DNA of 32,000 nucleotides from Erysipelotrichaceae bacterium (GTDB lineage Bacteria; Bacillota_I; Bacilli_A; Erysipelotrichales; Coprobacillaceae), in assembly GCA_028698185.1 (NCBI GenBank), contig JAQVDW010000008.1:1-32000 (forward strand), in the 5' to 3' direction. Position 1 is the first letter of the stretch; each line of letters opens with the position of its first letter. Below are positions 3,430-24,316 of the stretch, one piece after another. The notes under the pieces are model-generated. The model saw only the letters and a program-made list of their open reading frames with translations. It was not told the origin of the DNA and searched no databases. The position numbers were made by a program, and so were the translations under genes.

Positions 3430-3444
3430 CACCCCAAATTAATT

Positions 3445-3467
3445 TTGGCACTATTGTCGGACGCCAA
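3445..3467 (+). promoter_or_regulatory. Operator-like inverted repeat TTGGC-N13-GCCAA upstream of mtlA, a putative MtlR site
   Basis: It lies within the 28-nt element TTTTGGCACTATTGTCGGACGCCAAATC. A near-identical copy is at 9571-9598. Both end 17 nt before their -35 box. Confidence 0.6.
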
Positions 3468-3484
3468 ATCTAATTTGGGTTTGA

Positions 3485-3514
3485 TTGAAAATATGTTTTG
3501 GTAGCGCTTATAAT
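3485..3514 (+). promoter_or_regulatory. mtlA promoter
   Basis: TTGAAA (3485-3490), an 18-nt spacer, TATAAT (3509-3514). Confidence 0.6.
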
Positions 3515-3577: not shown

Positions 3578-4957
3578 ATGAAAGAAAAAGTCCAAACATT
3601 CGGACGGTTTTTAAGCGGCATGGTAATGCCAAATATCGGGGCATTCATTGCCTGGGGTTTGATCACTGCATTTTTTATTGAGACAGGATGGTTGCCAAAC
3701 GCGACATTCGCAGCATTGGTCGGACCAATGATCACTTATCTGTTGCCTTTATTGATCGGTTTCACCGGAGGGAAAATGGTTCATGACTTCCGCGGTGGGG
3801 TAATTGGAGCAATCGTAACCATGGGCGTTATCGTCGGTTCTGGAACAATCATGTTCATGGGGGCGATGATCTGCGGTCCTCTGGCTGCATGGATCTTGAA
3901 AAAATTCGATGAAAGAGTCGAAGGTAAAGTAAAACCCGGCTTTGAAATGCTTGTAAACAACTTCTCAATCGGAATCATCGGTCTGATCCTGACATTGCTT
4001 GCCATGTTGGCAATCGCGCCAGTGGTCGTAGCTGTAAACAACGCATTGGCGGCTGGAGTTGGCTTCTTCGTTGAACGCTCAATGTTGCCATTGGCGTCAC
4101 TGTTCATCGAACCGGCAAAAATCCTATTCTTGAACAACGCAATCAATCACGGAATCTTCTCGCCTCTGGGAATCGCCCAAGTCGAAGAAGTTGGAAAATC
4201 AATCTTCTTCCTGCTTGAGGCAAATCCGGGACCAGGTCTAGGAATCCTTATGGCCTATATGATTGCCGGAAAAGGGATGTCAAAAGCATCAGCGCCAGGA
4301 GCAATAATCATCCACTTCCTGGGTGGTATCCATGAAATCTATTTCCCATTCGTATTGATGAATCCATTGTTGATCTTCGCCGCTATCGGTGGGGGAGCTG
4401 CCGGTGTCTTCACTTTCCAAATGTTGAATGTCGGTCTGACTGCTCCAGCTTCACCGGGTTCAATCTTCGCATTATTGATGATGTGCTCTAAAGACAGCTA
4501 TGTCGGTCTGGTTTTGGGTGTGGCTGCAGCGGCCCTGGTGGCACTGGCGATTGCCCTGCCAATCCTGAAATTCTCAAACAAAGAAACTAGTCTCGAAGAA
4601 GCAAAACAAAAAAACAAGGAATTGAAAGGTGCAAATCCTGCGCAGGATACAAAAGCAATCACCGGAAAAATTTCGAAAATCGCTTTTGCCTGCGATGCCG
4701 GAATGGGATCAAGCGCGATGGGAGCTACAGTCTTGAAAAACAAGATTAAGGATGCGGGCCTAACTGGAATCGAAGTCATCCATACGTCGGTTTCGACAAT
4801 CCCCGGGGATGTCCAGGTCGTTGTCACCCATGAGTCACTGGCGCAACGGGCGGCCAATTCGAATCCGGATGCCAAGCTGGTATTGATCACAAACTTCCTG
4901 CAGGCTCCTGAGTATGATGAGCTAGTCGAATTCCTAAAAGAAAACCATAAAAATTAG
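3578..4957 (+). CDS. mtlA: PTS mannitol-specific EIICB component
   Basis: 459 aa. The N-terminus FGRFLSGMVMPNIGAFIAWG plus LFLNNAINHGIF, NPGPG and FLGGIHEIYFP are mannitol EIIC motifs. The C-terminal EIIB module has the phospho-Cys context IAFACDAGMGSSAMG. AAGGAG SD present. Confidence 0.9.
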   Translation: MKEKVQTFGRFLSGMVMPNIGAFIAWGLITAFFIETGWLPNATFAALVGPMITYLLPLLIGFTGGKMVHDFRGGVIGAIVTMGVIVGSGTIMFMGAMICGPLAAWILKKFDERVEGKVKPGFEMLVNNFSIGIIGLILTLLAMLAIAPVVVAVNNALAAGVGFFVERSMLPLASLFIEPAKILFLNNAINHGIFSPLGIAQVEEVGKSIFFLLEANPGPGLGILMAYMIAGKGMSKASAPGAIIIHFLGGIHEIYFPFVLMNPLLIFAAIGGGAAGVFTFQMLNVGLTAPASPGSIFALLMMCSKDSYVGLVLGVAAAALVALAIALPILKFSNKETSLEEAKQKNKELKGANPAQDTKAITGKISKIAFACDAGMGSSAMGATVLKNKIKDAGLTGIEVIHTSVSTIPGDVQVVVTHESLAQRAANSNPDAKLVLITNFLQAPEYDELVEFLKENHKN

Positions 4958-4980
4958 GTCACTTAAGTGACCTGTTTTTT
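4956..4980 (+). terminator. Intrinsic terminator of mtlA
   Basis: AGGTCAC-ttaa-GTGACCT followed by GTTTTTT. Confidence 0.85.
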
Positions 4981-4988: not shown

Positions 4989-5005
4989 GGTTACGGGTGA
5001 TATTA

Positions 5006-6334
5006 ATGAAAAAACAAATCAAGAAAATTATCAAGTTCTATGCCTCGATTATCATGTCCTGCATGGGCGTATTCATGTTTCTGGGCATTTTGAATATAGT
5101 GTCGAATTTCTACCAGGATGAACGCCTGGTCCAAAGCATCCATGTGATAATAAACATCATTCTACCGGTGACCATAGCTTACCTGGCGGCCACCAGGATA
5201 TCGGACCATACCGGTGGAATAATCGGACTTCTGGCTAGTGTAGCCTTGATTGTGACACCAAACAATGCGAGCATCATCGGCGCCTTTGTGATTGGGAGTT
5301 GCGCCGGGCTTGTCAACCGGCATTTTTTGAAGCGGCTCATAGAGCGGATTCCACCGGGATTCGAGCTTCTGTTTACCAACCTGATTATCGGCGTTTTCGG
5401 TTTTGGACTGGGGATGCTGGTGAATCTGGTGATGATTCCAACGCTGAATGTTTTTAGCGTTGTTACCAACGGATTTATCACATACCTGCTAAACAACGAG
5501 CTGATCGCTCTGATGGCGGTGGTAATCGAGGTTTCCAAAGTGTTTTTCTTGAACAACCTGATCAACCATGGAATCCTGATCCCCCTGGGTCTGTCCCAGG
5601 TCAATCAGATGGGAGACACGATCCTTTTTTTCCTGGAAACAAATCCCGGACCGGGTGCCGGGGTGATCCTGGCCCTGCTTTTTGCAAAAAAAAGGGAGGC
5701 CCGGCAGATGTTTAGTTATTTCACGGTCCAGTTTCTAGGCGGAATCCATGAGGTTTACTTCCCGCTTGTCCTGGAATTCAGGAAGCTATTCATCGCCCTG
5801 ATAATGGGTGGGATGGCCGGAATCATCACGATGGAGAACATGGATCTCGGACTGATAAGTCCGGTAAGTCCCGGCAGCGTCTTTACGATCATGCTCAATG
5901 CGAGCAATTCCGACCGCCTGCTGGTGCTGGCACCAATCGGGATTTCCCTGCTGGTTTCATTCTTTAGCGCGATTGTAATCCTCCAGATTTCCACTGCTTC
6001 CCATGGGGGCAAGAAAAGTTCCGTCCTAAAATTGGGACCGATCAAAAAGATCGTTTTCACATGCGACGGGGGCTTCGGATCGTCGGTGATGGGTGCATCC
6101 CTTTTCAATCGCAAAATCAAGAAATATGATTTCAACCTGACGGTCAAGGCTCAGGGAATAAATAATATCGATGAAGATGTCTCGCTGATTGTCGTCCAGA
6201 CGGGATTAGAGAAGATGGCTCGGGAAAAGTATCCTCACAAGGAAATATATCCGGTCAATGAATTCCTGGACAATGGCAGCTATGACGAACTTATTGCAAT
6301 GTTGGAAGAAAGGAACAGGAATAATGAACTTTGA
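5006..6334 (+). CDS. Divergent mannitol-family PTS EIICB paralog, either a second permease or a sensor
   Basis: 442 aa from ATG 5006 (an in-frame GTG lies at 4997). It retains FFLNNLINHGI, NPGPG, FLGGIHEVYFP, SPGS and an EIIB Cys context (IVFTCDGGFGSSVMG). The N-terminus and most loops differ from the upstream MtlA. It overlaps the mtlR start by 11 nt. Confidence 0.8.
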   Translation: MKKQIKKIIKFYASIIMSCMGVFMFLGILNIVSNFYQDERLVQSIHVIINIILPVTIAYLAATRISDHTGGIIGLLASVALIVTPNNASIIGAFVIGSCAGLVNRHFLKRLIERIPPGFELLFTNLIIGVFGFGLGMLVNLVMIPTLNVFSVVTNGFITYLLNNELIALMAVVIEVSKVFFLNNLINHGILIPLGLSQVNQMGDTILFFLETNPGPGAGVILALLFAKKREARQMFSYFTVQFLGGIHEVYFPLVLEFRKLFIALIMGGMAGIITMENMDLGLISPVSPGSVFTIMLNASNSDRLLVLAPIGISLLVSFFSAIVILQISTASHGGKKSSVLKLGPIKKIVFTCDGGFGSSVMGASLFNRKIKKYDFNLTVKAQGINNIDEDVSLIVVQTGLEKMAREKYPHKEIYPVNEFLDNGSYDELIAMLEERNRNNEL

Positions 6335-8378
6335 TCCACGAATGAAAAAAATACTTCTGGAATTGCTCAAGGATGAGTACCTTTCGATTTCCCAGCTGGC
6401 TGAGCGCGTCGGGGTATCCAAACGGACTATCCAGCGAGAGCTTGGCTACATTGACGATGATTTAAGACCGTACAATCTGGTGTTCCAAAGCAAGACCGGA
6501 AAGGGCGTCTGGCTTGAAGGGTCCCAGGAAAACAAGCTTGAACTTTACAGTGCCATTGAAAAGGACAACACCTTCGACAGTTTCGATGCCAAAAACCGCC
6601 AGCGCCGGATCCTGCTCGAATTGCTCAAATCACAGGACATCCACAAGATAATATCCTTTGCGAACCTGATCAATGTATCAGAAGCGACAATCAGGCTCGA
6701 TCTTATGGAAATCGAAAAGTGGCTTGACAAGTTCGACCTTGTCCTGGAAAAGACACCGGGCCTAGGAGTCAGGATGTCGGGCAGCGAGGCCAATTTGCGT
6801 CGGGCAATTCGTGCCTACTTCAGTGATTTTGCCCCGGAAAGCAGCGGCTCAGGTCGGTTTGATGAAATCAAGGAATTCATGGTCAAGAATCGTGAAGGCA
6901 TATCCCAGCTGCTCGATGAGGACATCCTCAAAAGGGTGATCGAATGTCTTGAGGACATTTCCAGCGACCAGATCAGGGAGCTTACCGAAAGTTCCTATAT
7001 CGGCCTGATTATCCATCTGGCCATAGTGGTCAAAAGGATCCAAAGCGGGGAGCAGATAAGCTATGACCGTGATCTGCTCAAAAGCATCGACATCGACCAG
7101 GATTACCGGATCGCCAAGCTGATTGGCGAATTTCTAATGGCGGAGTTCGATATTGTGATCGACGAGATGGAACTGTATTACATCAACCTCCATCTCAAGG
7201 GAACCAAACACCAGACCATGAATATCGAGAATATCCAAATGGACAACGAGGTCATCAAGCGCCTGATCAACAAGATGATCGATGCCTATGATCCGGCTAT
7301 CGCCTTTGAACTGAAGCAGGACGACCATTTCATCAACGGCCTGCTTACCCATTTGCAGCCTACTTTGATCAGGATTGTCAATGACATGGTCATAACAAAT
7401 CCTTTGCTTGACCAGATCAAGAAACAGTATCCTCGCGAGTTCGAAAAATGCCTGAATGTGGGTCAGGTCCTCGAGGATTTCACCCACAAGAAGGTGCCTT
7501 CGGGCGAAATCGGATTTCTCGCGATGCATTTTGGCAGTGCCGGCATCCGGCTCAAACTCGCTACCAAAAAAGCACGCCGGGTCAATGTCGGAGTCATCTG
7601 TGCGACGGGAATCGGGCTGTCACGTCTGATGGGGGCAAGTCTTGAAAAGATATATGGCGACAGGATCAGGGTTTTCCCCTTTTCCAAGGCCGATGCTTTT
7701 AGCGCTGATGTGATTGATTTCTACCTTTCATCGATAAAGATGGATGGCTACCATGAAAATCTTCTTTACGTCAACCCGATATTGAATGATCAGGACCTTG
7801 ATGCCATTGGCGCGCTTATTGAAAAGCATTGTTACCTTCCTGTAAAGAATACCACCGTTCAGGACAGTTTCATCGAACAGCTTAGCGAATTCGACTACTA
7901 TGTGGGCACAATCAAATATATTCTCGAAAACATCCGGATCACCCGGATTCGAGCGGACTGTGATTTTGGTGGCCTTGTCGCCCGTTCAACTGATTCCATG
8001 GATGAAACAATGGCTGCTACGGTGCGCCATGACCTTATTGCCCGGGAAAAAATAGGCAGCCAGATTTTCAAACAGCTATCGTTTGGCCTGCTACATACCA
8101 AGACTAACGGGGTTGAAAGACCTCAAATCATCCTGATTTTGCCTGAATCCGGGCCGGCTTTTGTGGATGACTATCTTGCAGGAGTCAAGGTTGTCATTTG
8201 TTTGCTTATGCCAAAAAATGAATACGAGAATCTTAATTCGAACATCCTGGGCCATATTTCATCGGTGCTCGTCGAAGACGAATCGATAATCGACGTATTT
8301 GCCACCGGTCAAAAACAGGAAATAGTCGAGAAGCTCTCGCTCCATTTCAAGACTTTCCTGGCTAAAAACCTGCTATGA
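6324..8378 (+). CDS. mtlR: MtlR-type PRD-containing transcriptional activator (HTH, Mga-like region, PRD1, PRD2, EIIB-Gat-like and EIIA-Mtl-like domains)
   Basis: 684 aa from ATG 6324, with AAGGAACAGGA upstream. The longer ORF from 6258 has no SD. Features are an N-terminal HTH (LSISQLAERVGVSKRTIQREL), PRD histidines (YINLHLKG, FLAMHFGSAG), an EIIB-like Cys (VGVICATGIGLS) and a C-terminal EIIA-like His (GLLHTKT). Its length and context match MtlR of Bacillus and Geobacillus. Confidence 0.85.
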   Translation: MNFDPRMKKILLELLKDEYLSISQLAERVGVSKRTIQRELGYIDDDLRPYNLVFQSKTGKGVWLEGSQENKLELYSAIEKDNTFDSFDAKNRQRRILLELLKSQDIHKIISFANLINVSEATIRLDLMEIEKWLDKFDLVLEKTPGLGVRMSGSEANLRRAIRAYFSDFAPESSGSGRFDEIKEFMVKNREGISQLLDEDILKRVIECLEDISSDQIRELTESSYIGLIIHLAIVVKRIQSGEQISYDRDLLKSIDIDQDYRIAKLIGEFLMAEFDIVIDEMELYYINLHLKGTKHQTMNIENIQMDNEVIKRLINKMIDAYDPAIAFELKQDDHFINGLLTHLQPTLIRIVNDMVITNPLLDQIKKQYPREFEKCLNVGQVLEDFTHKKVPSGEIGFLAMHFGSAGIRLKLATKKARRVNVGVICATGIGLSRLMGASLEKIYGDRIRVFPFSKADAFSADVIDFYLSSIKMDGYHENLLYVNPILNDQDLDAIGALIEKHCYLPVKNTTVQDSFIEQLSEFDYYVGTIKYILENIRITRIRADCDFGGLVARSTDSMDETMAATVRHDLIAREKIGSQIFKQLSFGLLHTKTNGVERPQIILILPESGPAFVDDYLAGVKVVICLLMPKNEYENLNSNILGHISSVLVEDESIIDVFATGQKQEIVEKLSLHFKTFLAKNLL

Positions 8379-8461
8379 TGGTTTTAAAGTCGTCATCTTT
8401 GCATTTGCAAGTCTTTTTTGATATGGTTATACCATAAAGAAAAGACAAGGAGAATTCAAAT

Positions 8462-9055
8462 ATGAGCGAATATCTGCATTTGATTGAAAAGCGCCGCTCC
8501 AATTACGACCTTGGTCGCAATGTCACAGCCACCAAGGAAGAGATAAATGAGCTGATCGCCACTGTCGTCCATCACAACCCATCATCATACAACAGCCAGT
8601 CCACTAAGGTAATCGTGCTTTATGATTTGGAACATGACGATTTCTGGGACCTGGTCTCGAACCAACTTGAGAAGATCGTCGCTCCGGAAAGATTTCCAGC
8701 CACCAAAAAAAAGATTGAAGGATTCAAAAAGGCCTTTGGGACCGTCCTGTTTTTCGAAGATGAAAGCATAACCGGAGACCTGGTGAAAAAGTACCCCAGC
8801 TATGCCCAAAACTTCCGAATCTGGGCGCAGCAGGCCAATGCGATGGTCCAGTATGGAATCTGGGTCGGGTTGGGGGTGATGTCTCTTGGCGGTTCGCTCC
8901 AGCATTACAATGAAGTAATCGAAACGGCGGTGTGGCAGGCGTACGATCTTGATCGAAGCTGGAGGCTGATCGCCCAGATGCCTTTTGGATCGATCGAGAG
9001 CGCACCAAATGAAAAGGCGAAGAAAATCGAAGGGCGCATGATAATTAAAGAATAG
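8462..9055 (+). CDS. Nitroreductase-family flavoprotein
   Basis: 197 aa with an AAGGAGA SD. The N-terminal IEKRRSNYDL and the later NSQSTKVIVL block are typical of the small NAD(P)H nitroreductase-like family. A terminator follows. Confidence 0.7.
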   Translation: MSEYLHLIEKRRSNYDLGRNVTATKEEINELIATVVHHNPSSYNSQSTKVIVLYDLEHDDFWDLVSNQLEKIVAPERFPATKKKIEGFKKAFGTVLFFEDESITGDLVKKYPSYAQNFRIWAQQANAMVQYGIWVGLGVMSLGGSLQHYNEVIETAVWQAYDLDRSWRLIAQMPFGSIESAPNEKAKKIEGRMIIKE

Positions 9056-9080
9056 AGTCGCCTTGATCTATCACAATGGA

Positions 9081-9116
9081 GTCAACTTAAGAATTTTTTC
9101 TTGAGTTGGCTTTTTT
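9081..9116 (+). terminator. Intrinsic terminator after the nitroreductase gene
   Basis: GTCAACTTAAG-aatttttt-CTTGAGTTGGC (two G-U pairs) followed by TTTTTT. Confidence 0.8.
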
Positions 9117-9521
9117 GTTTGTGCAGTTTGCGGGTGATCTGACAAATGATTTTTAGAAACTCAAACATCATCGAGCCTCCAGGAATTGGCTATCACTCGT
9201 CACTGAATGTTTGGTCAACTCCGACATTTGAAGATTATAAAAAATGTGTCTCATCCGTTGCTTGCACTCAGACAGTTCTCATTGCAACAATCTTTCTTTG
9301 CAGGTTCACAGTTAGGACTACCATGCAAATTATCCTGGCAAGGCTTGAATGGTTTTGCAACGCGGATGGCCCTACCTGCAGTATACCATTACCATTATAA
9401 GACTTGATTTTGACGGCAATAAGTTAATTTATCTTGATACAATCGCCATAAATCGAAGATATCGCTATCCAAAACGAAAACATGTTTAAGCCAGGGAAGT
9501 TATTTAAGTTGATTCCTTTTG

Positions 9522-9558: not shown

Positions 9559-9573
9559 CTACCCTAAGCAGTT

Positions 9574-9596
9574 TTGGCACTAATTGATGGGGCCAA
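9574..9596 (+). promoter_or_regulatory. Second copy of the TTGGC-N13-GCCAA operator, upstream of mtlF
   Basis: The element is TTTTGGCACTAATTGATGGGGCCAAATC. The 11-nt left flank and the 8-nt right flank are identical to the mtlA copy. Confidence 0.6.
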
Positions 9597-9613
9597 ATCA
9601 ACTTTGCAATAAA

Positions 9614-9642
9614 TTGAATTACAAGCGATTACATAGGATAAT
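9614..9642 (+). promoter_or_regulatory. mtlF operon promoter
   Basis: TTGAAT (9614-9619), a 17-nt spacer, GATAAT (9637-9642). Confidence 0.55.
9620..9633 (+). promoter_or_regulatory. cre-like (CcpA) site inside the mtlF promoter spacer
   Basis: TACAAGCGATTACA compared with the consensus TGWAANCGNTNWCA. The right half and the central CG are perfect, and the left half has two mismatches. Confidence 0.35.
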
Positions 9643-9670: not shown

Positions 9671-10132
9671 ATGTTTTTTAAGAAAAATAAACAGGCGGTA
9701 GAGAAACCGCCCTTACTGAAAAAAGAAAATATCATAATCAACGCCAAGGCGGCCGACAAAGACGATGCCATCAACCAGGTCGGAAAGATTTTGTTTGATA
9801 GCGGCTATGTGCTGCAAGAATATATCCAGGGTATGCACGAAAGAGAAAAGACCTTCGCGACATACATGGGCAACTATCTGGCGCTGCCCCATGGGGTGGA
9901 ACAGGTCAAGGATGCCATCGTCAATTCCGGAATCGCAATCATGATCTTCCCGGATGGTGTCGACTGGGACGGCAACGATGCCAAAATAGTGATCGGCATC
10001 GCCGGCAAAGGCGGCGAACACATGACCATCCTGGCGAATATAGCAACCAAGCTGATCGACATCAACGTTTGCGAACAGCTGATTGCCAGTGACCAGGACA
10101 CCATTTACGACATACTGACAAGCGAGGCCTAA
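9671..10132 (+). CDS. mtlF: PTS mannitol-specific EIIA component
   Basis: 153 aa with an AAAGGAG SD. The phospho-His context is YLALPHGVEQ. The overall pattern (KENI..N, GYV...Y, ER E, GIAGKGGEH) closely follows my recollection of B. subtilis MtlF. Confidence 0.85.
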   Translation: MFFKKNKQAVEKPPLLKKENIIINAKAADKDDAINQVGKILFDSGYVLQEYIQGMHEREKTFATYMGNYLALPHGVEQVKDAIVNSGIAIMIFPDGVDWDGNDAKIVIGIAGKGGEHMTILANIATKLIDINVCEQLIASDQDTIYDILTSEA

Positions 10133-10133
10133 G

Positions 10134-11060
10134 ATGATAATCACAATTACTATGAATCCCGCAGTGGATAAGACAATAACACTCGACCAGCTAGAACTGG
10201 GCGGATTGAGCCGGGTCAAATCAATCAAGCAGGACGCCGGTGGCAAAGGAATCAATGTTTCCAAGACAATCAAGGCATTGCACGGGGAATCCCTGGCATT
10301 GGGATTTGTCGGAGGCGAAAGCGGAACATTCATTGTCAAGGCATTGAATGAACTGGACATCAGACATGATTTTGTATACCTGGACCAGAATACCCGGGTT
10401 AACACGAAGGTGGTTGAAAACAGTGGCCGGGTCAGTGAAATAAATGAACCTGGACCGATCATCAACCGGGAAATGGTCGACTTGCTTTTGGAAAAGGTCA
10501 GAAAATATGCGGCAGAAGACGTTGTCTTTGTCCTTGCGGGATCGATTCCCCTTGGAGTGGACAAAGGAATCTACGGAAAGATCGTCGACATCGCCCATCT
10601 AAACGGGGCCAAGGTCATCCTGGATGCGGACGGCGACCTGTTCCGGGAATCGCTGCCTTCAAATCCCGACTATATCAAACCAAACCGCGAGGAATTGGAA
10701 AAATACGCCGGGCTGGACCACGAGGCATCAAAAGAGGAGCTGATCGCCATCGGTCAGGGACTCAAGGACAAGGGTATTGACAATGTCCTGATTTCACTGG
10801 GCAAAGAAGGGGCTTTGTTTTTGATGGAACGCAATGCGTTCGTGCCAGGACTCAAGGTAGTTGCCCAATCGACAGTCGGCGCCGGTGACGCGCTGGTCGG
10901 GGCGCTGGCTTACAGTGTCGAACACAAACTTGAACTAGAAGACCTGATCGAGCTGGCAATCGCCACTTCGGCTGGAGCAGTCACGACCCATGGAACCCAG
11001 CCACCAACGAATGAACTGGTCAACGAGCTCAAAAAACAAGTGAAAATTGAAATGTTATAG
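10134..11060 (+). CDS. 1-phosphofructokinase-family hexose-phosphate kinase (PfkB/FruK/LacC family)
   Basis: 308 aa. The N-terminus MIITITMNPAVDKT...DAGGKGINVS and the C-terminal anion-hole motif VGAGDALVGALAY are typical of FruK/LacC kinases. The start is 1 nt after the mtlF stop, with a GAGG SD inside the mtlF 3-prime end. Confidence 0.85.
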   Translation: MIITITMNPAVDKTITLDQLELGGLSRVKSIKQDAGGKGINVSKTIKALHGESLALGFVGGESGTFIVKALNELDIRHDFVYLDQNTRVNTKVVENSGRVSEINEPGPIINREMVDLLLEKVRKYAAEDVVFVLAGSIPLGVDKGIYGKIVDIAHLNGAKVILDADGDLFRESLPSNPDYIKPNREELEKYAGLDHEASKEELIAIGQGLKDKGIDNVLISLGKEGALFLMERNAFVPGLKVVAQSTVGAGDALVGALAYSVEHKLELEDLIELAIATSAGAVTTHGTQPPTNELVNELKKQVKIEML

Positions 11061-11096
11061 ATAGATAAAAAAAGATAGAAAATCGAGGAGAACAAG

Positions 11097-12362
11097 ATGA
11101 AAACTAGAGCAGTTAGAATGTACGGAGAAAATGATTTACGCTTGGAAGAATTTGAATTGCCACAGATCAAGGATGATGAAATCCTGGTTAAGGTTATGTC
11201 TGACAGTATCTGCATGTCAACCTACAAATTGGCTATCCAAGGTAAAAAACACAAGAGAGCACCCAAAAATATCGATACCAACCCGATCATCATCGGTCAT
11301 GAATTCGCGGGAGTTATCGTTGAAGTCGGAAAGAAATGGCAGGACCAGTTCAAACCGGGAATGAAATTCGCGCAACAGCCGGCATTGAACTACAAAGGTT
11401 CTCTGGCATCACCGGGTTATTCATATGAATTCTTCGGGGGAGCCTGCACTTATTGCATCATCCCACAAGAAGTAATGGAACTGGGATGTCTGATGGAATA
11501 TAAAGGAGAAAGTTTCTTCGAAGCTTCACTGGGGGAACCGATGTCATGTATCATCGGCGGTTACCATGCCAACTACCATACAAACAAACAGAACTACGAG
11601 CATGCGATGGGAACCAAAAAAGACGGGAACATCATCATTCTTGGAGGTTGTGGACCGATGGGTCTGGGTGCGATCTCTTACGGGCTGCAAATCGAAAACA
11701 GACCGCAACGGATTGTCGTTACGGATATCGACGATGCGAAAATCCAAAGAGCTCGCGAAGTTATCAGCGAACAGCAAGCCAAGGAGGCCGGAGTCGAACT
11801 GATCTATGTCAATACAGCCAAAATGGCCGACCAAGTAAAGGAACTCAAAGATCTTACCGACGGTCATGGTTATGATGATGTCTTTGTCTACATCCCGAAC
11901 CAGAAAGTGGCGGAACTAGGTGACCAGCTTATGGCCTTCGATGGTTGCTTGAACTTCTTCGCCGGACCGACTGACAGCAATTTCTCAGCCAAAATCAACC
12001 TTTACAATGTCCACTACACCGCAAGCAAGATCATCGGGTCGACCGGTGGGAACAACGATGATTTGATCGAAGCCAATGAACTGGCATCGAAAAAATTGAT
12101 CGAACCGGCCGTAATGGTAACCCATGTCGGTGGTATTGATTCAATTGCCCAAGCGACTCTCGACTTGCCAAATATTCCAGGTGGGAAAAAGCTGACTTAC
12201 ACCCAATTCGAAATGCCTCTGACTGCAATCGAAGATTTCAAGGAATTAGGAAAAACCGATCCTCTTTTCAAGAAGCTCGATGAAGCCTGCCAGGCAAACC
12301 GCGGACTATGGAGCAGCGAAGCGGAAAAAATCCTGTTCGATCATTATAACGTAACTTATTAA
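11097..12362 (+). CDS. Zn-dependent medium-chain dehydrogenase of the roughly 420-aa SorE/YggP (L-sorbose-1-phosphate reductase-like) type
   Basis: 421 aa with a GAGGAG SD. Motifs include DSICMSTYK, IIGHEFAGVIVEVGKKW, a Rossmann loop ILGGCGPMGLGA, FFAGPTD and PGGKKLTY. The length and motif order match my recollection of SorE and E. coli YggP, and not MtlD. Confidence 0.75.
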   Translation: MKTRAVRMYGENDLRLEEFELPQIKDDEILVKVMSDSICMSTYKLAIQGKKHKRAPKNIDTNPIIIGHEFAGVIVEVGKKWQDQFKPGMKFAQQPALNYKGSLASPGYSYEFFGGACTYCIIPQEVMELGCLMEYKGESFFEASLGEPMSCIIGGYHANYHTNKQNYEHAMGTKKDGNIIILGGCGPMGLGAISYGLQIENRPQRIVVTDIDDAKIQRAREVISEQQAKEAGVELIYVNTAKMADQVKELKDLTDGHGYDDVFVYIPNQKVAELGDQLMAFDGCLNFFAGPTDSNFSAKINLYNVHYTASKIIGSTGGNNDDLIEANELASKKLIEPAVMVTHVGGIDSIAQATLDLPNIPGGKKLTYTQFEMPLTAIEDFKELGKTDPLFKKLDEACQANRGLWSSEAEKILFDHYNVTY

Positions 12363-12369
12363 TGACACT

Positions 12370-12395
12370 GACGATCCTTATCGGGTCGTCTTTTT
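12370..12395 (+). terminator. Intrinsic terminator of the mtlF-kinase-dehydrogenase operon
   Basis: GACGATCC-ttatc-GGGTCGTC followed by TTTTT. Confidence 0.75.
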
Positions 12396-12453
12396 ATGTG
12401 GCAATATATTTTTTAATGGGGTAAAATCTAGATAACAAGGGAGGATTGGGGTT

Positions 12454-15171: not shown

Positions 15172-16081
15172 CTTCAAGCTCCTTTGTCATTTTTTTGTAT
15201 GTGGTGACCTGTCTTCGTTTGGCCAGATAGGTCGGAATGGCCAAAGCCACGGCAACCAGAATGGCGGTGAAAAGTTTCAGGTCATCGGTCGAAAGTCCGG
15301 CCTGGAGCACCAGGGTGATGATGATCCGATAGATGATTGAACCGGAAATGATCGCGGCTAGGGTGACCATAAAATTGGTTCCCTTAGAGATTAGGACTTC
15401 ACCGATTACAATCGAAGCCAGGGCCATGACAATCGCCCCGATCCCCATTTTGATGTCGGCATAACCCTGGGCCTGGGTGACAAGTCCGCCCGAAAGGGCG
15501 ATCAGGCCGTTGGAAATCATCAGTCCGATGATCTTTGTCGAGTTGGTGTTCACGCCAAGCGAACGGACCATCTTCTCATTGTTTCCGGTGGCCCGAATCG
15601 CGCTTCCCAGTTCGGTTCCAAAAAACCAGTAACTGATCATGATGATGACCACTGCAATCACAAGCCCGATTATCAAAACGATCCAGTTGTTTGACAGCCC
15701 GCCAATCGGGAAGTCCTTGAACAGGTTAGGGGTGTTGAGCAATGGGATGTTCGATCTCCCCATTATTCGAAGGTTGATCGAGTACAGCCCGATCTGTGAC
15801 AATATCCCGGCCAGGATGGCGGGAATATCGAATTTGGTGTGTAAGATTCCGGTTATTCCTCCGGCAATGAAACCGGAAACCGTGGCCATCAAAATGGCGA
15901 CGAAAGGATTGATTCCTGATGTCAACGCTACTGCGCAGACCGCTCCGCCTGTGGCAAAAGAGCCGTCTACCGTCAAATCAGCAATGTCCAAAAGTCTAAA
16001 AGTAATAAAAACGCCTAAGGCCATGATACCCCAAAGGATACCTTGACCTACAGCGCTTTGAATAGCAAGTAAAAAAGGCAT
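15155..16081 (-). CDS. ABC transporter permease (COG4120-type)
   Basis: 308-aa polytopic membrane ORF. Its start overlaps the stop of the upstream binding-protein gene (TAATG), and its 3-prime end overlaps the ATPase start. Confidence 0.85.
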   Translation of the reverse strand: MPFLLAIQSAVGQGILWGIMALGVFITFRLLDIADLTVDGSFATGGAVCAVALTSGINPFVAILMATVSGFIAGGITGILHTKFDIPAILAGILSQIGLYSINLRIMGRSNIPLLNTPNLFKDFPIGGLSNNWIVLIIGLVIAVVIIMISYWFFGTELGSAIRATGNNEKMVRSLGVNTNSTKIIGLMISNGLIALSGGLVTQAQGYADIKMGIGAIVMALASIVIGEVLISKGTNFMVTLAAIISGSIIYRIIITLVLQAGLSTDDLKLFTAILVAVALAIPTYLAKRRQVTTYKKMTKELEDAETK

Positions 16082-17046
16082 TATTCGACGATTACCGCTT
16101 CGGAACTCAAATCTGCGGGAATTGTGATTCCAAGCGCATCAGCAGTAGTCTGATTAATTGTAAGTTCGCATTCTTCTTTATTTAAATATACGATTGGCAT
16201 AGATGCCGGATTGGCTTGGTTTTTCAGGATTTCAACAGCTTGTTGACCAGCCAGTTTTCCAAGTTCATAGTAGTCGATTCCATAAGTGGCAAGCCCCCCG
16301 TTGGTAACCATTCCGGCTTCACCGACGATAGTAGGGATCTTGTTTTCGTTGCATACCATGGCAACTGTCTGCATTCCGTCAGCCAGCAAGTTGTCGGTAG
16401 GGATGTAGATGGCGTCAACTTTTCCTACAGCCGATTCAACAACTTGTTGGATCGCGTTTGATTCGGATACAGTGTATGGCTTATATGTCATTCCTGCCGC
16501 TTCAATTGCTTCTTTGGCAAGGTTTGCCTGGAAAATTGAGTTGTCCTCTGACGAGTTGTACATAACCCCGACAGTTTTGGCAGTTGGGATCAGTTGTTTG
16601 AGCAGGTCGATCTGTTCTTGAACAGGAGTCAGATCCGATGCCCCAGTGACGTTTGTCCCAGGGTTTTCGTTGCTTTGAACCAGTCCTGAAGATGCCGGAT
16701 CGGTAACGGCACTGACAACGATAGGGATATCGGTTGTTTTTGAAGCCGCCGATTGGGCTGCCGGAGTGGCAATGGCGTAGATCAGATCAACGCCGTCGTT
16801 GACGAATTTCGATGCGATCGAATCGCAGTTGGCGATATCGCCTTGAGCGTTCTGGTCGTCGTATGTTACTTCGATGCCCGCTTCTTCCAAGGCGTCTTTG
16901 AATCCTTCATTGGTGGCATCAAGGGCCGGATGTTGGACTAGCTGGATGATTCCAACTGTCTGCGTGTCTGCGGATGTGGAACTTCCACAAGCAGCTAATC
17001 CAAGCGCCAATGAAGATGCCAGTAATGACTTGAATATTTTCTTCAT
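16081..17046 (-). CDS. ABC transporter substrate-binding lipoprotein (ABC_sub_bind / COG2984 type)
   Basis: 321 aa. It has a signal peptide with lipobox LGLAACGSS, and GIIQLVQHPALD is typical of this family. It is the first gene of a three-gene operon on the minus strand. Confidence 0.85.
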   Translation of the reverse strand: MKKIFKSLLASSLALGLAACGSSTSADTQTVGIIQLVQHPALDATNEGFKDALEEAGIEVTYDDQNAQGDIANCDSIASKFVNDGVDLIYAIATPAAQSAASKTTDIPIVVSAVTDPASSGLVQSNENPGTNVTGASDLTPVQEQIDLLKQLIPTAKTVGVMYNSSEDNSIFQANLAKEAIEAAGMTYKPYTVSESNAIQQVVESAVGKVDAIYIPTDNLLADGMQTVAMVCNENKIPTIVGEAGMVTNGGLATYGIDYYELGKLAGQQAVEILKNQANPASMPIVYLNKEECELTINQTTADALGITIPADLSSEAVIVE

Positions 17047-23616: not shown

Positions 23617-23761
23617 ATGACAGTAAATGAAAAGTAGTGGAAAGAAGAAGTGCCTGCTTCTCGCCTGAGTGAACTTATCGCTAGGCCAATGTCACAAAGA
23701 ATTTATTCTTAATGAGATTATAGCGGGTGCAATCTGTACTCGCTTTTTATTTTAAACTACT
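23617..23761 (+). promoter_or_regulatory. Structured 5-prime leader of the infC operon, an L20-leader-type attenuator
   Basis: A leader of about 140 nt lies between the promoter and the infC SD. It ends in an intrinsic terminator (23722-23750). This is the architecture described for L20-mediated autoregulation in Bacillus. Confidence 0.55.
23722..23750 (+). terminator. Attenuator terminator inside the infC leader
   Basis: AGCGGGTGCA-atc-TGTACTCGCT followed by TTTTTATTTT, 12 nt before the infC SD. Confidence 0.7.
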
Positions 23762-24316
23762 ATGGAGGTGACTTTTATTAGAAAATATGATACCAAAAAA
23801 CCAAAACAACCTGATGAGTTAGTAAATGAGAAGATTCGGTTCAGAGAAGTCTTGGTTATTGATCAAAATGGTGATCAGCTTGGAGTTAAATCGAAAAATG
23901 AGGCTATCGATCTTGCGTATAGCCGTGATTTAGATTTGGTTTGTGTTGCCCCAAATGCCAAACCGCCAGTTTGCCGGATTATGGACTTTGGAAAATATCG
24001 TTTTGAGCAACAAAAAAAGGCTCGAGAAATGAAGAAAAACTCGAAAACTGTTACCCTTAAAGAAACGCAGTTGTCAGTGACTATCGATACTCATGACAAA
24101 AACGTGAAGTTGAAAAGAACATTGGCTTGGCTTGAGGAAGGTAACAAAGTTAAAATTGCAATCAGGTTCAGAGGTCGACAAATGGCTCATATGGACTTAG
24201 GAAAGAAAGTCATTGATGATTTTGTGGCTGAATGTGCGGAATTCGGTACGGTTGAATCACCAGCCAAACTAGAAGGAAGAACGTTGACTGCAATCATTGC
24301 ACCAAAGAAAAAATAA
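23762..24316 (+). CDS. infC: Translation initiation factor IF-3
   Basis: The pattern INEKIRFREVLVIDQNGDQLG...VCRIMDFGKYRFEQQKK...FRGRQMAH is typical IF-3. The ATG at 23762 sits inside the GGAGGTGA SD, so the real start is probably the in-frame ATT at 23777. Confidence 0.9.
   Translation: MEVTFIRKYDTKKPKQPDELVNEKIRFREVLVIDQNGDQLGVKSKNEAIDLAYSRDLDLVCVAPNAKPPVCRIMDFGKYRFEQQKKAREMKKNSKTVTLKETQLSVTIDTHDKNVKLKRTLAWLEEGNKVKIAIRFRGRQMAHMDLGKKVIDDFVAECAEFGTVESPAKLEGRTLTAIIAPKKK

Follow-up and report, generated by a model that had tools for sequence, protein, structure and literature searches.

A mannitol-class PTS regulon encoding a 1-phosphofructokinase and a SorE/YggP-family dehydrogenase points to a mannitol route through fructose 1-phosphate

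The MtlD route of mannitol catabolism yields fructose 6-phosphate (F6P). Another chemistry on hexitol phosphates is that of SorE, a dehydrogenase that acts at the carbon adjacent to the phosphate and whose gene in K. pneumoniae belongs to the sorCDFBAM-E operon, with a mannose-class PTS. A gene of the same family, yggP, is found in E. coli K-12 in the order cmtB-cmtA-yggP-yggF-fumE-yggC; this bears out the place beside cmtAB that the original prediction had given it, and the linkage is kept in Photobacterium. Our literature search found neither a named SorE/YggP-type mannitol-1-phosphate dehydrogenase or mannitol route through fructose 1-phosphate (F1P), nor biochemical or genetic data on YggP or on the members of its clade linked to Mtl genes. 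Here, we analysed a stretch of 32 kb from an Erysipelotrichaceae bacterium, a gut Firmicute (the window), and surveyed 82 loci encoding related dehydrogenases: those of 80 different species genomes, the window itself, and its close relative L002. The pairing of an F1P kinase with a SorE/YggP-type zinc dehydrogenase, in dozens of species, points to a possible and undescribed route from mannitol 1-phosphate through F1P into glycolysis.

The window is best read as a two-promoter mannitol regulon, with all its features on the plus strand. It has the components of such regulons in Firmicutes: an EIICB, a PRD activator with a C-terminal EIIA_2 domain, a separate EIIA_2 protein, and a common operator. 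The EIICB gene, mtlA (3578-4957), passes the two mannitol-permease models, NF011663 (659.6 bits for a cut-off of 589) and TIGR00851 (512.6 bits for a cut-off of 468.4). Its product is 50% identical to CmtA and 60% identical to E. coli MtlA, from which we infer that it takes up mannitol. This protein lacks a IIA domain and depends on a separately encoded EIIA, which is supplied by the downstream unit described below. A divergent MtlA-like EIICB paralogue follows (4997-6334; 264.6 bits on NF011663, under the cut-off, and 29% identity to CmtA), with full-length copies also in L002, L004, L009 and L010. The activator gene mtlR (6324-8378) matches the Pfam families HTH_11, Mga, PRD (in two stretches) and PTS_EIIA_2; its reading frame is open from 6258 and probably starts at 6324 (MNFDPRM). 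The gene is syntenic in L002, and 50 of the 82 loci of the survey have it in the same context. Between mtlR and the downstream unit lie a gene of the Pfam Nitroreductase family (8462-9055) and a terminator-like hairpin of 16 pairs followed by a T-run (9078-9113). The nitroreductase gene is present at the locus in the window and L002 only, among the 82, and is probably foreign to the pathway.

The downstream unit and mtlA were predicted to carry the same operator, and this was borne out. The MtlR-type operator TTTGGCAC-N11-GCCAAAT occurs 5' of mtlA (3444-3469) and 5' of the unit (9573-9598), and these are the only two exact matches of the 26-nt pattern in the 32 kb, where none is expected by chance. 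The first copy holds the imperfect inverted repeat TTGGCAC-N9-ACGCCAA, aligns with matching sites in L002, and ends 16 nt before the -35 element of a TTGAAA/TATAAT pair (3485-3514). The second ends at the same distance from the promoter TTGAAT-17-GATAAT (9614-9642), so that the geometry is equal at both places. A 23-nt site resembling TTGGCAC-N9-GTGCCAA precedes mtlA, and again the EIIA gene, not only in the window but in at least nine further loci. These operators presumably resemble the half-sites of B. subtilis MtlR, and MtlR would activate both promoters by binding to them.

The unit itself is a single transcription unit of three genes, encoding an EIIA (9671-10132), a kinase (10134-11060) and a 421-aa zinc dehydrogenase (11097-12362). 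The layout initially described was accurate: one nucleotide separates the EIIA gene from the kinase gene (TAA-G-ATG), the dehydrogenase gene follows after 36 nt with its own Shine-Dalgarno sequence (GAGGAG upstream of the ATG), and the sole terminator lies after the third gene. This intrinsic terminator-like element (12370-12396) consists of a strong hairpin (12370-12390) with an 8-pair stem, including five G-C pairs, and of a T-run (TTTTT, in TTTTTAT). A hairpin scan of the plus strand within the unit gave a single minimal-stem match of five pairs, at 11402-11416. The EIIA protein (153 aa) matches PTS_EIIA_2 (PF00359, E = 6e-33), has its phosphorylatable histidine at residue 74 in the motif LALPHG, and is the only free-standing EIIA_2 protein of the window. 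It had been called a clear MtlF type. The EIIA_2 class and the LPHG context hold, but the sequence does not support the narrower type: the protein scores 117 bits with FruB and 105 bits with the C-terminus of MtlA. Since the match to FruB is as good, within an EIIA_2 class common to Mtl and Fru proteins, the MtlF label comes from genomic context. The similarity of the EIIA to CmtB of E. coli is marginal (19 bits, E = 0.018).

The kinase was predicted to be FruK-like, and the curated models agree. This PfkB-family protein of 308 aa scores 310.8 bits on TIGR03828, the 1-phosphofructokinase equivalog with a curated cut-off of 292 bits, and falls far below the cut-offs of the sister models, with 125 bits on Pfk-2 (cut-off 353) and 147-165 bits on the LacC models (cut-offs 410-469). 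By the curated model it is thus classified as a 1-phosphofructokinase, and we call its gene fruK. The homologues encoded in the surveyed clusters behave alike: all 56 match the two 1-phosphofructokinase/hexose-kinase models, TIGR03828 and TIGR03168, with E-values of about 1e-105 at best, and reach E-values of 1e-61 or weaker on the tagatose-6-phosphate kinase and Pfk-2 models. A mannitol operon has need of its own F1P kinase only where F1P is formed on the way.

The dehydrogenase is, as had been proposed, a zinc-type medium-chain dehydrogenase/reductase (MDR). Its ADH_N (PF08240) and ADH_zinc_N (PF00107) domains both exceed the Pfam gathering cut-offs, the family alignment shows little or no variation at the zinc ligands C39, H68, E69 and E147, and the dinucleotide-binding motif G184-x-G186-x-x-G189 is present. 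The residue that closes the second Rossmann strand, D210, suggests NAD as the cofactor; a four-Cys structural-zinc loop is not visible in the sequence. The AlphaFold model (pLDDT 95.3) has an MDR fold, whose best Foldseek matches are butanediol, threonine and sorbitol dehydrogenases (E-values down to 9e-28). Domains, ligands, nucleotide-binding motif and fold place the protein in the polyol-dehydrogenase branch of the zinc MDRs. Its homology to SorE and YggP extends from end to end, including a C-terminal extension in which W405 and E410 are invariant among 20-23 family representatives, and its identity is 51% with E. coli YggP over the full length, 45% with K. pneumoniae SorE, and 42% with a SorE-like protein of L. 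plantarum. Relatives of the dehydrogenase occur in at least 597 species-representative genomes, and the SorE/YggP family has few full-length representatives when clustered at 50% identity. In a neighbour-joining tree built without support values, the window protein groups with YggP and with a Firmicute clade linked to Mtl genes, separate from the clade of its own that is formed by two SorE-type proteins (52% identical to each other). Its assignment to SorE proper is not supported: it falls outside the SorE clade, and neither a mannose-class PTS nor a short-chain dehydrogenase (SDR) accompanies it in the window. PTS genes are lacking near the members of a nested subclade of about 59% identity, and the function is therefore not uniform across the family.

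Taken together, these genes suggest the following path. MtlA and the separate EIIA would take up and phosphorylate mannitol to mannitol 1-phosphate. The dehydrogenase would replace MtlD and oxidise C2, next to the phosphate, to give D-fructose 1-phosphate, probably with NAD+. The co-transcribed 1-phosphofructokinase would convert the latter to fructose 1,6-bisphosphate (FBP), the substrate of glycolytic aldolase, bypassing F6P and the housekeeping phosphofructokinase. The stereochemistry favours this proposal. Derived from Fischer projections starting at the phosphate end, D-mannitol 1-phosphate (2L,3L,4R,5R) and D-glucitol 6-phosphate (2L,3L,4R,5L) differ only at C5, and the products of their oxidation at C2, D-fructose 1-phosphate and L-sorbose 1-phosphate, are C5 epimers. 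Given this single difference, SorE chemistry would transfer to mannitol 1-phosphate and give F1P. The regiochemistry is here carried over from SorE at 45% identity, and the product and cofactor of the dehydrogenase, like the activation of the unit by MtlR, are predictions read from the genes. We regard the path from mannitol through mannitol 1-phosphate and F1P to FBP as probable in this bacterium.

The dehydrogenase gene stands where mtlD does in the canonical order mtlA-R-F-D, and one may ask if the enzyme is simply a non-homologous replacement of MtlD that oxidises the distal carbon to F6P, the kinase being then a Pfk-2-like 6-phosphofructokinase or serving co-imported fructose. Most polyol MDRs, such as sorbitol dehydrogenase and GatD, which are among the nearest solved folds, do oxidise next to a free primary hydroxyl, and there are F6P kinases in the PfkB family. 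Yet, the wide gap between the scores of the kinase on the 1-phosphofructokinase and Pfk-2 models, repeated in its 56 homologues, argues against this explanation, and the closest characterised relative of the dehydrogenase, SorE, acts next to the phosphate. Furthermore, one cluster encodes both a member of the family and a Mannitol_dh-family enzyme, which argues against redundancy with MtlD. We find this replacement improbable.

The relation between the route through F1P and MtlD is nevertheless not one of strict exclusion. The absence of an MtlD from the 32 kb, noted from the start, was confirmed: a tblastn search of the window with E. coli MtlD gave a best E-value of 3.3, and among the window ORFs put through Pfam or NCBIfam scans there was no match to the Mannitol_dh family. 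When the ±10-kb flanks of the relatives are included, MtlD was found within 10 kb of the cluster in two of 82 loci (L031 and L082), both times outside the operon. The mtlD of L031 stands alone, 4.5 kb away from the cluster, beside putative pgi and glmS genes named by their N-terminal sequences only, and in L094 and L095 the gene of the dehydrogenase family adjoins one of the Mannitol_dh family. The idea of an MtlD-independent pathway thus stands for the window and most flanks, whereas the co-occurrences in L031, L094 and L095 show that the two types of enzyme are not strictly exclusive. This fits non-redundant chemistries, and weakens the demand that mtlD be absent. It might also be taken to indicate that the enzyme works mainly in reverse, reducing F1P to mannitol 1-phosphate as an electron sink or, with an MtlD encoded elsewhere, as part of a redox-neutral conversion of F1P to F6P, and that it is not the step by which mannitol enters catabolism. 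SorE is reductive in vivo, the neighbours of the L031 mtlD encode putative users of F6P, and in L094 and L095 the enzyme is encoded together with a sugar kinase and a protein of the Mannitol_dh family. Still, the unit in the window is co-regulated with the mannitol permease and provides its EIIA, the window has no fructose PTS and no mtlD, and F1P would also be drawn on by the FruK that this unit encodes. A mainly reductive role seems very improbable to us.

The oxidative route through F1P draws its comparative support from the conservation of the gene association. The dehydrogenase is linked to a mannitol-class PTS (MtlA/EIIA type) in 70 of the 82 loci, and 56 of these 70 clusters also encode a 1-phosphofructokinase; some of the 14 that miss fruK are on truncated contigs. 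The kinase gene is adjacent to that of the dehydrogenase in 49 loci, immediately upstream in 45 and immediately downstream in 4. The trio of MtlA, dehydrogenase and FruK spans many Firmicute families and also occurs in spirochaetes; its gene order takes at least four forms, and its regulator is of either of two types (MtlR or DeoR). These orders include mtlA-mtlR-mtlF-fruK-DH(-HPr), DeoR-mtlA(CBA)-DH-fruK-HPr, DeoR-fruK-mtlA-DH and, in L089, mtlA-EIIA-DH-PfkB-HPr-EI-MtlR (DH, dehydrogenase gene). The cluster is arranged divergently in Peptacetobacter hiranonis (L096) and directly adjoins fruR-fruK-fruA in L044. Loci of Anaerostipes have two to three tandem dehydrogenase paralogues with MtlA-like permeases. 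The true SorE proteins are encoded beside mannose-class PTS genes. Other members of the family are found with Aldolase_II-SDR fusions, or in a cluster of FGGY kinase, dehydrogenase and Mannitol_dh-family genes that mimics the logic of sor; these contexts, too, would involve ketose 1-phosphates. The conserved trio, the uniform kinase matches, the distinct clade and the common operator all favour the F1P route that was originally put forward. On balance, we favour the broader view that a SorE/YggP-family mannitol-1-phosphate 2-dehydrogenase and FruK constitute a widespread third bacterial route for mannitol.

A further question is that of the substrate. The PTS could import another hexitol or a ketose, with the dehydrogenase acting on the resulting sugar phosphate, for example as an L-sorbose-1-phosphate reductase or on a glucitol phosphate, and the PfkB protein on a ketose phosphate. 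Some close homologues are indeed named L-sorbose 1-phosphate reductase in databases, the cluster has a second and divergent EIICB, E. coli MtlA weakly accepts other polyols, and the tandem paralogues of Anaerostipes hint at substrate diversification. However, true sor operons have a mannose-class PTS and an SDR glucitol-6-phosphate dehydrogenase, which are both absent from the window, and the window dehydrogenase lies outside the SorE clade. The permease passes both mannitol models and is 60% identical to E. coli MtlA, and the kinase exceeds the equivalog cut-off for 1-phosphofructokinase. Moreover, the clusters have no conserved dedicated aldolase, without which a bisphosphate of tagatose or sorbose could not be processed. 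A substrate other than mannitol is therefore unlikely.

The predicted mannitol route through F1P is close in organization to the canonical mtlA-mtlR-mtlF-mtlD operon, with which the window has in common the order of mtlA, a PRD-type mtlR and an mtlF-like EIIA, and an operator 5' of the promoter. They differ in that fruK and an unrelated MDR dehydrogenase take the place of MtlD (mannitol-1-phosphate 5-dehydrogenase, EC 1.1.1.17), and in that the predicted product is F1P instead of F6P. SorE belongs to the same family and length class as the window enzyme (410-425 aa, an MDR core extended at the C-terminus by about 60 conserved aa), and the proposed chemistry is the same, interconverting a hexitol phosphate and a ketose 1-phosphate at the carbon that neighbours the phosphate. 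Yet, SorE is associated with a mannose-class PTS and an SDR glucitol-6-phosphate dehydrogenase, whereas the window enzyme is associated with a mannitol-class PTS and FruK, would work in the oxidative direction, and would use the C5 epimer, mannitol 1-phosphate. GatD (galactitol-1-phosphate 5-dehydrogenase, PDB 4A2C; Foldseek E = 6e-21) is also a zinc MDR acting on a PTS-derived hexitol phosphate, but it is about 23% identical to the window enzyme, lacks the C-terminal extension, and forms a ketose 6-phosphate by oxidation at the carbon remote from the phosphate.

The closest named relative is E. coli YggP, described in RefSeq as a putative zinc-binding dehydrogenase only, whose gene comes right after the genes of a mannitol-class EIIA/EIICB pair, a linkage like that of the window. 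The proteobacterial cmt operon lacks fruK and has instead genes for an FBPase (yggF) and a P-loop NTPase (yggC); an FBPase gene following cmtBA-yggP would make sense if the route bypasses F6P. If our reading is correct, it would provide a function for yggP and the "cryptic" cmt operon. Finally, the FruK proteins of fruBKA and fruRKA operons pass TIGR03828 like the window kinase, which shares only 32% identity with the FruK of E. coli, and the proposed role, from F1P to FBP, is identical. In fructose PTS operons F1P arises from PTS uptake of fructose, whereas in the window, where fruK is part of a mannitol regulon devoid of a fructose permease, it would arise from the dehydrogenase. Such a pathway would yield F1P independently of fructose uptake, and F1P is the effector to which Cra and FruR respond.

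Our analysis showed that the three genes of the original prediction form a compact unit on the + strand, an observation that is real and non-random. ORF listing and profile searches placed a 153-aa PTS EIIA_2 protein at 9671-10132 (PF00359, E = 6e-33, with its histidine in LALPHG), a 308-aa PfkB kinase (fruK) at 10134-11060 and a 421-aa zinc dehydrogenase with ADH_N and ADH_zinc_N domains at 11097-12362, all as first read. The gaps are of 1 nt and then 36 nt, the latter holding GAGGAG, and the only terminator, expected after the third gene, corresponds to a strong terminator-like hairpin with a T-run (12370-12390); a + strand hairpin scan inside the unit gave a single minimal-stem match (11402-11416). 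The kinase passes the NCBIfam 1-phosphofructokinase equivalog model (TIGR03828; 310.8 bits, cut-off 292) and falls far under the cut-offs of the tagatose-6-P kinase and Pfk-2 models in the profile search. A 283-aa antisense ORF (9713-10564) was rejected as a gene, since it lies wholly opposite two well-supported ones. The predicted absence of MtlD was borne out by a homologue search of all 32 kb, and the other scanned genes of the window are housekeeping or have no family match. A ribosomal protein L20 leader (Rfam RF00558, 62.4 bits; 23636-23757) upstream of infC (23762-24316) is an ordinary housekeeping feature.

The locus reads mtlA, a divergent MtlA-like EIICB, a PRD-type mtlR, a nitroreductase gene with its own terminator, and then the three-gene unit. 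L002, a close relative with a genome of 2.57 Mb and a dehydrogenase of 89% identity, has the same layout. The mtlA product is an EIICB that scores above the cut-offs of both curated mannitol-permease models and shares 60% identity with E. coli MtlA; lacking a IIA domain, it depends on the EIIA of the second unit. The strongly divergent EIICB (4997-6334), between mtlA and mtlR and preceded by a terminator-like hairpin at 4955-4974, scores under the cut-off of the mannitol IICBA model (264.6 bits against 589), shares 29% identity with CmtA, and retains both the Cys motif of EIIB and the GIHE motif. It is full-length in L002 and in three other loci of our survey (L004, L009, L010), fragmentary in two (L013, L068), and has a putative substrate or sensor role. 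The nitroreductase gene (from 8462, terminator at 9078-9113), inserted between mtlR and the EIIA gene, occurs only in the window and L002 among the 82 loci surveyed. It is followed by about 450 nt without a convincing gene before the second operator, a spacer that is much shorter in L002.

The claim that the unit carries the same operator as mtlA also held: the 32 kb contain exactly two copies of the motif TTTGGCAC-N11-GCCAAAT, with a chance expectation of none, one upstream of mtlA (3444-3469) and one upstream of the EIIA gene (9573-9598), and both end 16 nt ahead of a -35-like hexamer. The inverted repeat TTGGCAC-N9-GTGCCAA precedes both genes in the window and in nine other loci, and the two-promoter regulon is therefore conserved. 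Sequences resembling cre (CcpA) sites, with two mismatches to TGWAANCGNTNWCA, sit between the -35 and -10 of both mannitol promoters (3499-3512 and 9620-9633). We give them little weight because two-mismatch matches occur across the window at nearly the frequency expected by chance (44 observed, 32 ± 7 expected).

When one genome per GTDB species was scanned, at least 597 encoded a relative of the dehydrogenase. We analysed the best 80 of them (57-83% identity) together with the window and L002; ORFs in these 82 loci were called and then labelled by their match to a reference set, which makes the labels reference-based. In 70 of the 82, the dehydrogenase is linked to a mannitol-class PTS encoded on its own strand, and 56 of these 70 clusters also include a 1-phosphofructokinase gene; in 45 loci this gene immediately precedes that of the dehydrogenase, and in 4 it immediately follows it. 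All 56 kinases match two 1-phosphofructokinase/hexose-kinase models, with best E-values far beyond those of other models. The trio of mtlA, dehydrogenase and fruK survives rearrangement, being found in the orders mtlA-mtlR-mtlF-fruK-dehydrogenase (with or without HPr), DeoR-mtlA(CBA)-dehydrogenase-fruK-HPr and DeoR-fruK-mtlA-dehydrogenase, and, in L044, as a cluster directly adjoining fruR-fruK-fruA. Across the 82 loci, regulators are of the PRD-type MtlR (50) or DeoR (18) kinds, a small HPr gene is present in 36 (one example confirmed by Pfam), and an MtlD homologue occurs within 10 kb in only 2, outside the operon in both. In Peptacetobacter hiranonis (L096), mtlA-mtlR is divergent from the EIIA-PfkB-dehydrogenase unit. 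A more distant locus, L089, where the family member (8001-9260; representative P0122) is 50% identical, has the order mtlA-EIIA-dehydrogenase-PfkB-HPr-EI-MtlR; with its own HPr and Enzyme I, it appears to be a self-contained PTS dedicated to the pathway.

The P. hiranonis locus has a second PfkB-family kinase gene (10469-11395) after the dehydrogenase, besides the one before it. Three Anaerostipes loci (L052, L054, L059) lack fruK and have two or three closely spaced dehydrogenase paralogues (47-64% identity to the window protein), among which genes for DeoR regulators and MtlA-like permeases are interspersed; this suggests diversification towards other polyol phosphates. An Oscillibacter MAG (L031) has a standalone mtlD homologue (15831-16982, 47% identical to E. 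coli MtlD) 4.5 kb downstream of its DeoR-fruK-mtlA-dehydrogenase cluster, adjoining ORFs that are pgi- and glmS-like as judged by their N-terminal sequences only.

The dehydrogenase is identical to a deposited "zinc-binding dehydrogenase [Erysipelotrichaceae bacterium]", and homologues of about 80% identity abound in Lachnospiraceae and Peptacetobacter. HMMER, run exhaustively over 1.84 billion cluster representatives, showed it to belong to a compact family of roughly twenty full-length 50%-identity clusters. Identity is 51% over the full length with E. coli YggP. Two authentic sor operons served for comparison, one on a Klebsiella plasmid (sorC, SDR, mannose-class IIA/B/C/D, sorE) and one on a plasmid of Lactiplantibacillus; the window protein shares 45% and 42% identity with their respective SorE proteins, and these share 52% with one another. 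The phylogeny and context survey called for by the original prediction placed the window protein in a large Firmicute mannitol-PTS-linked clade, apart from the SorE clade (mannose-PTS context) and from a YggP branch, in a neighbour-joining tree without support values. The protein has the catalytic zinc ligands C39, H68, E69 and E147, a GxGxxG motif and a conserved C-terminal extension (W405, E410), and D210, at the end of the second Rossmann strand, weakly suggests NAD as the cofactor. Its AlphaFold model (pLDDT 95.3) has the MDR fold; among solved structures, those of butanediol, threonine and sorbitol dehydrogenases come closest to it, with about 20% sequence identity (at most 21%). The PDB holds no relative better than E = 9e-10, over partial length, and no solved member of the family; NCBIfam has no model specific to it, the top match being IolM (68 bits, cut-off 450). 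The dehydrogenase diverges far more slowly than its operon partners: between the window and L002 identity is 89% for the dehydrogenase, 76% for MtlA, 69% for EIIA, 67% for FruK and 57% for MtlR, and with Lachnospiraceae loci (L003-L025) it is about 80%, 54% and 38% for the dehydrogenase, FruK and MtlR. Strong constraint is one possible cause, horizontal transfer another.

These gene contexts and homologies make the originally proposed route, from mannitol-1-P through fructose-1-P (F1P) to fructose-1,6-bisphosphate (FBP), the best-supported interpretation, and one that we consider fairly probable. MtlA and EIIA would deliver mannitol-1-P, the dehydrogenase would oxidise it at C2, the carbon adjacent to the phosphate, and FruK would then form FBP. 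The MtlD route yields fructose-6-P (F6P), and only a pathway that forms F1P would call for a kinase dedicated to it, which argues for the F1P route. SorE, the closest relative to have been characterised, acts at the phosphate-adjacent carbon in interconverting L-sorbose-1-P and D-glucitol-6-P, and this homology supports C2 oxidation of mannitol-1-P. Read from the phosphate end in Fischer projections, D-mannitol-1-P is 2L,3L,4R,5R and D-glucitol-6-P is 2L,3L,4R,5L; C5 is the sole difference, and oxidation at C2 yields D-fructose-1-P and L-sorbose-1-P, respectively. Such shared stereochemistry also favours the reading of mannitol-1-P as the substrate and F1P as the product. The sorbose-1-phosphate reductase of Aerobacter/Klebsiella may also reduce F1P to mannitol-1-P, a point that we excluded from the evidence. 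Action on free mannitol was rejected, because the PTS supplies mannitol-1-P and FruK requires F1P. Another substrate for the whole module, as the database names of homologues and the extra EIICB might suggest, is unlikely given the strong scores on the MtlA models and the absence of sor-type partners and of a dedicated aldolase. Of the 70 mannitol-PTS-linked clusters, 14 lack fruK, some being truncated contigs. In clusters without the gene, F1P could conceivably induce a FruR-controlled fruK elsewhere.

Family members also occur away from the PTS. A PTS-free subclade (57-60% identity to the window protein), nested in or near the mannitol-PTS-linked clade, neighbours a fused E1alpha-beta/E2/E3/lipoate-ligase complex and/or a class II aldolase-SDR fusion. 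It comprises L067, L072, L074, L076, L077 and L092/L093 and includes a 54%-identical representative (P0121); the fused complex resembles 2-oxoacid or acetoin dehydrogenases. Class II aldolases of the fusion type act on ketose-1-phosphates, and the pathway may be a ketose-1-phosphate or deoxy-sugar route. In L094/L095, around representative P0127, the family member is flanked by genes for an FGGY sugar kinase and a Mannitol_dh-family protein, an arrangement that resembles a sorbose pathway working without a PTS (ketose-1-P to alditol-P to ketose-6-P). This cluster also has a shikimate-DH-like gene, an ABC sugar transporter and a 2-hydroxyacid dehydrogenase, with a Sugar-bind (SorC-type) regulator gene at the upstream end in L095. 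We read ketose-1-phosphates as the common theme of the PTS-free contexts. The association of kinase, dehydrogenase and Mannitol_dh genes implies that the dehydrogenase and MtlD families are complementary, not redundant. The usual regiochemistry of polyol MDR enzymes would fit an MtlD analogue yielding F6P, but the co-occurrence with Mannitol_dh-family genes and the 1-phosphofructokinase signature of every cluster kinase make this quite improbable. In L031, the two dehydrogenases could interconvert F1P and F6P via mannitol-1-P. A mainly reductive role, suggested by L031 and L094, is difficult to square with regulation shared with a mannitol permease, and we regard it as very improbable.

Two bacterial mannitol routes are given in textbooks and pathway databases, PTS uptake followed by MtlD to F6P, and mannitol 2-dehydrogenase followed by fructokinase. 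The F1P route, if correct, would be a third, requiring a new enzyme activity, and would account for a conserved operon of many gut and environmental anaerobes. We found no description of the activity or the operon in the searchable literature, which mostly excludes subscription journals and may omit an older biochemical report. It is reasonably likely that known enzyme families have here been combined into an undescribed mannitol route, widespread in anaerobes. F1P is the effector of Cra/FruR-type regulators. In E. coli, fructose import has been stated to be its only documented source (PMC11157272). The proposed route, if real, would thus bear on Cra/FruR-type regulation. It would also mean that reconstructions of gut bacteria using mtlD only wrongly score carriers of this operon as non-users of mannitol, a common food additive and laxative.

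Finally, the route is probably common to the cmt-yggP locus of E. coli. The originally cited position of yggP beside cmtAB proved right, the K-12 record (L001) giving cmtB-cmtA-yggP-yggF-fumE-yggC, and Photobacterium (L097) has cmtB-cmtA-yggP-yggD-yggC. In these gamma-proteobacteria, cmtB-cmtA-yggP is thus followed by yggD or fumE and the P-loop NTPase gene yggC, with an additional FBPase gene, yggF, in E. coli. Unlike the window unit, both loci lack fruK, and YggC is a candidate for the kinase in FruK's place. The presence of yggF beside yggP is tentatively consistent with a route bypassing F6P. If the F1P route operates there, it would give a function to yggP and the long-"cryptic" cmtAB system, and would account for the FBPase gene beside them.
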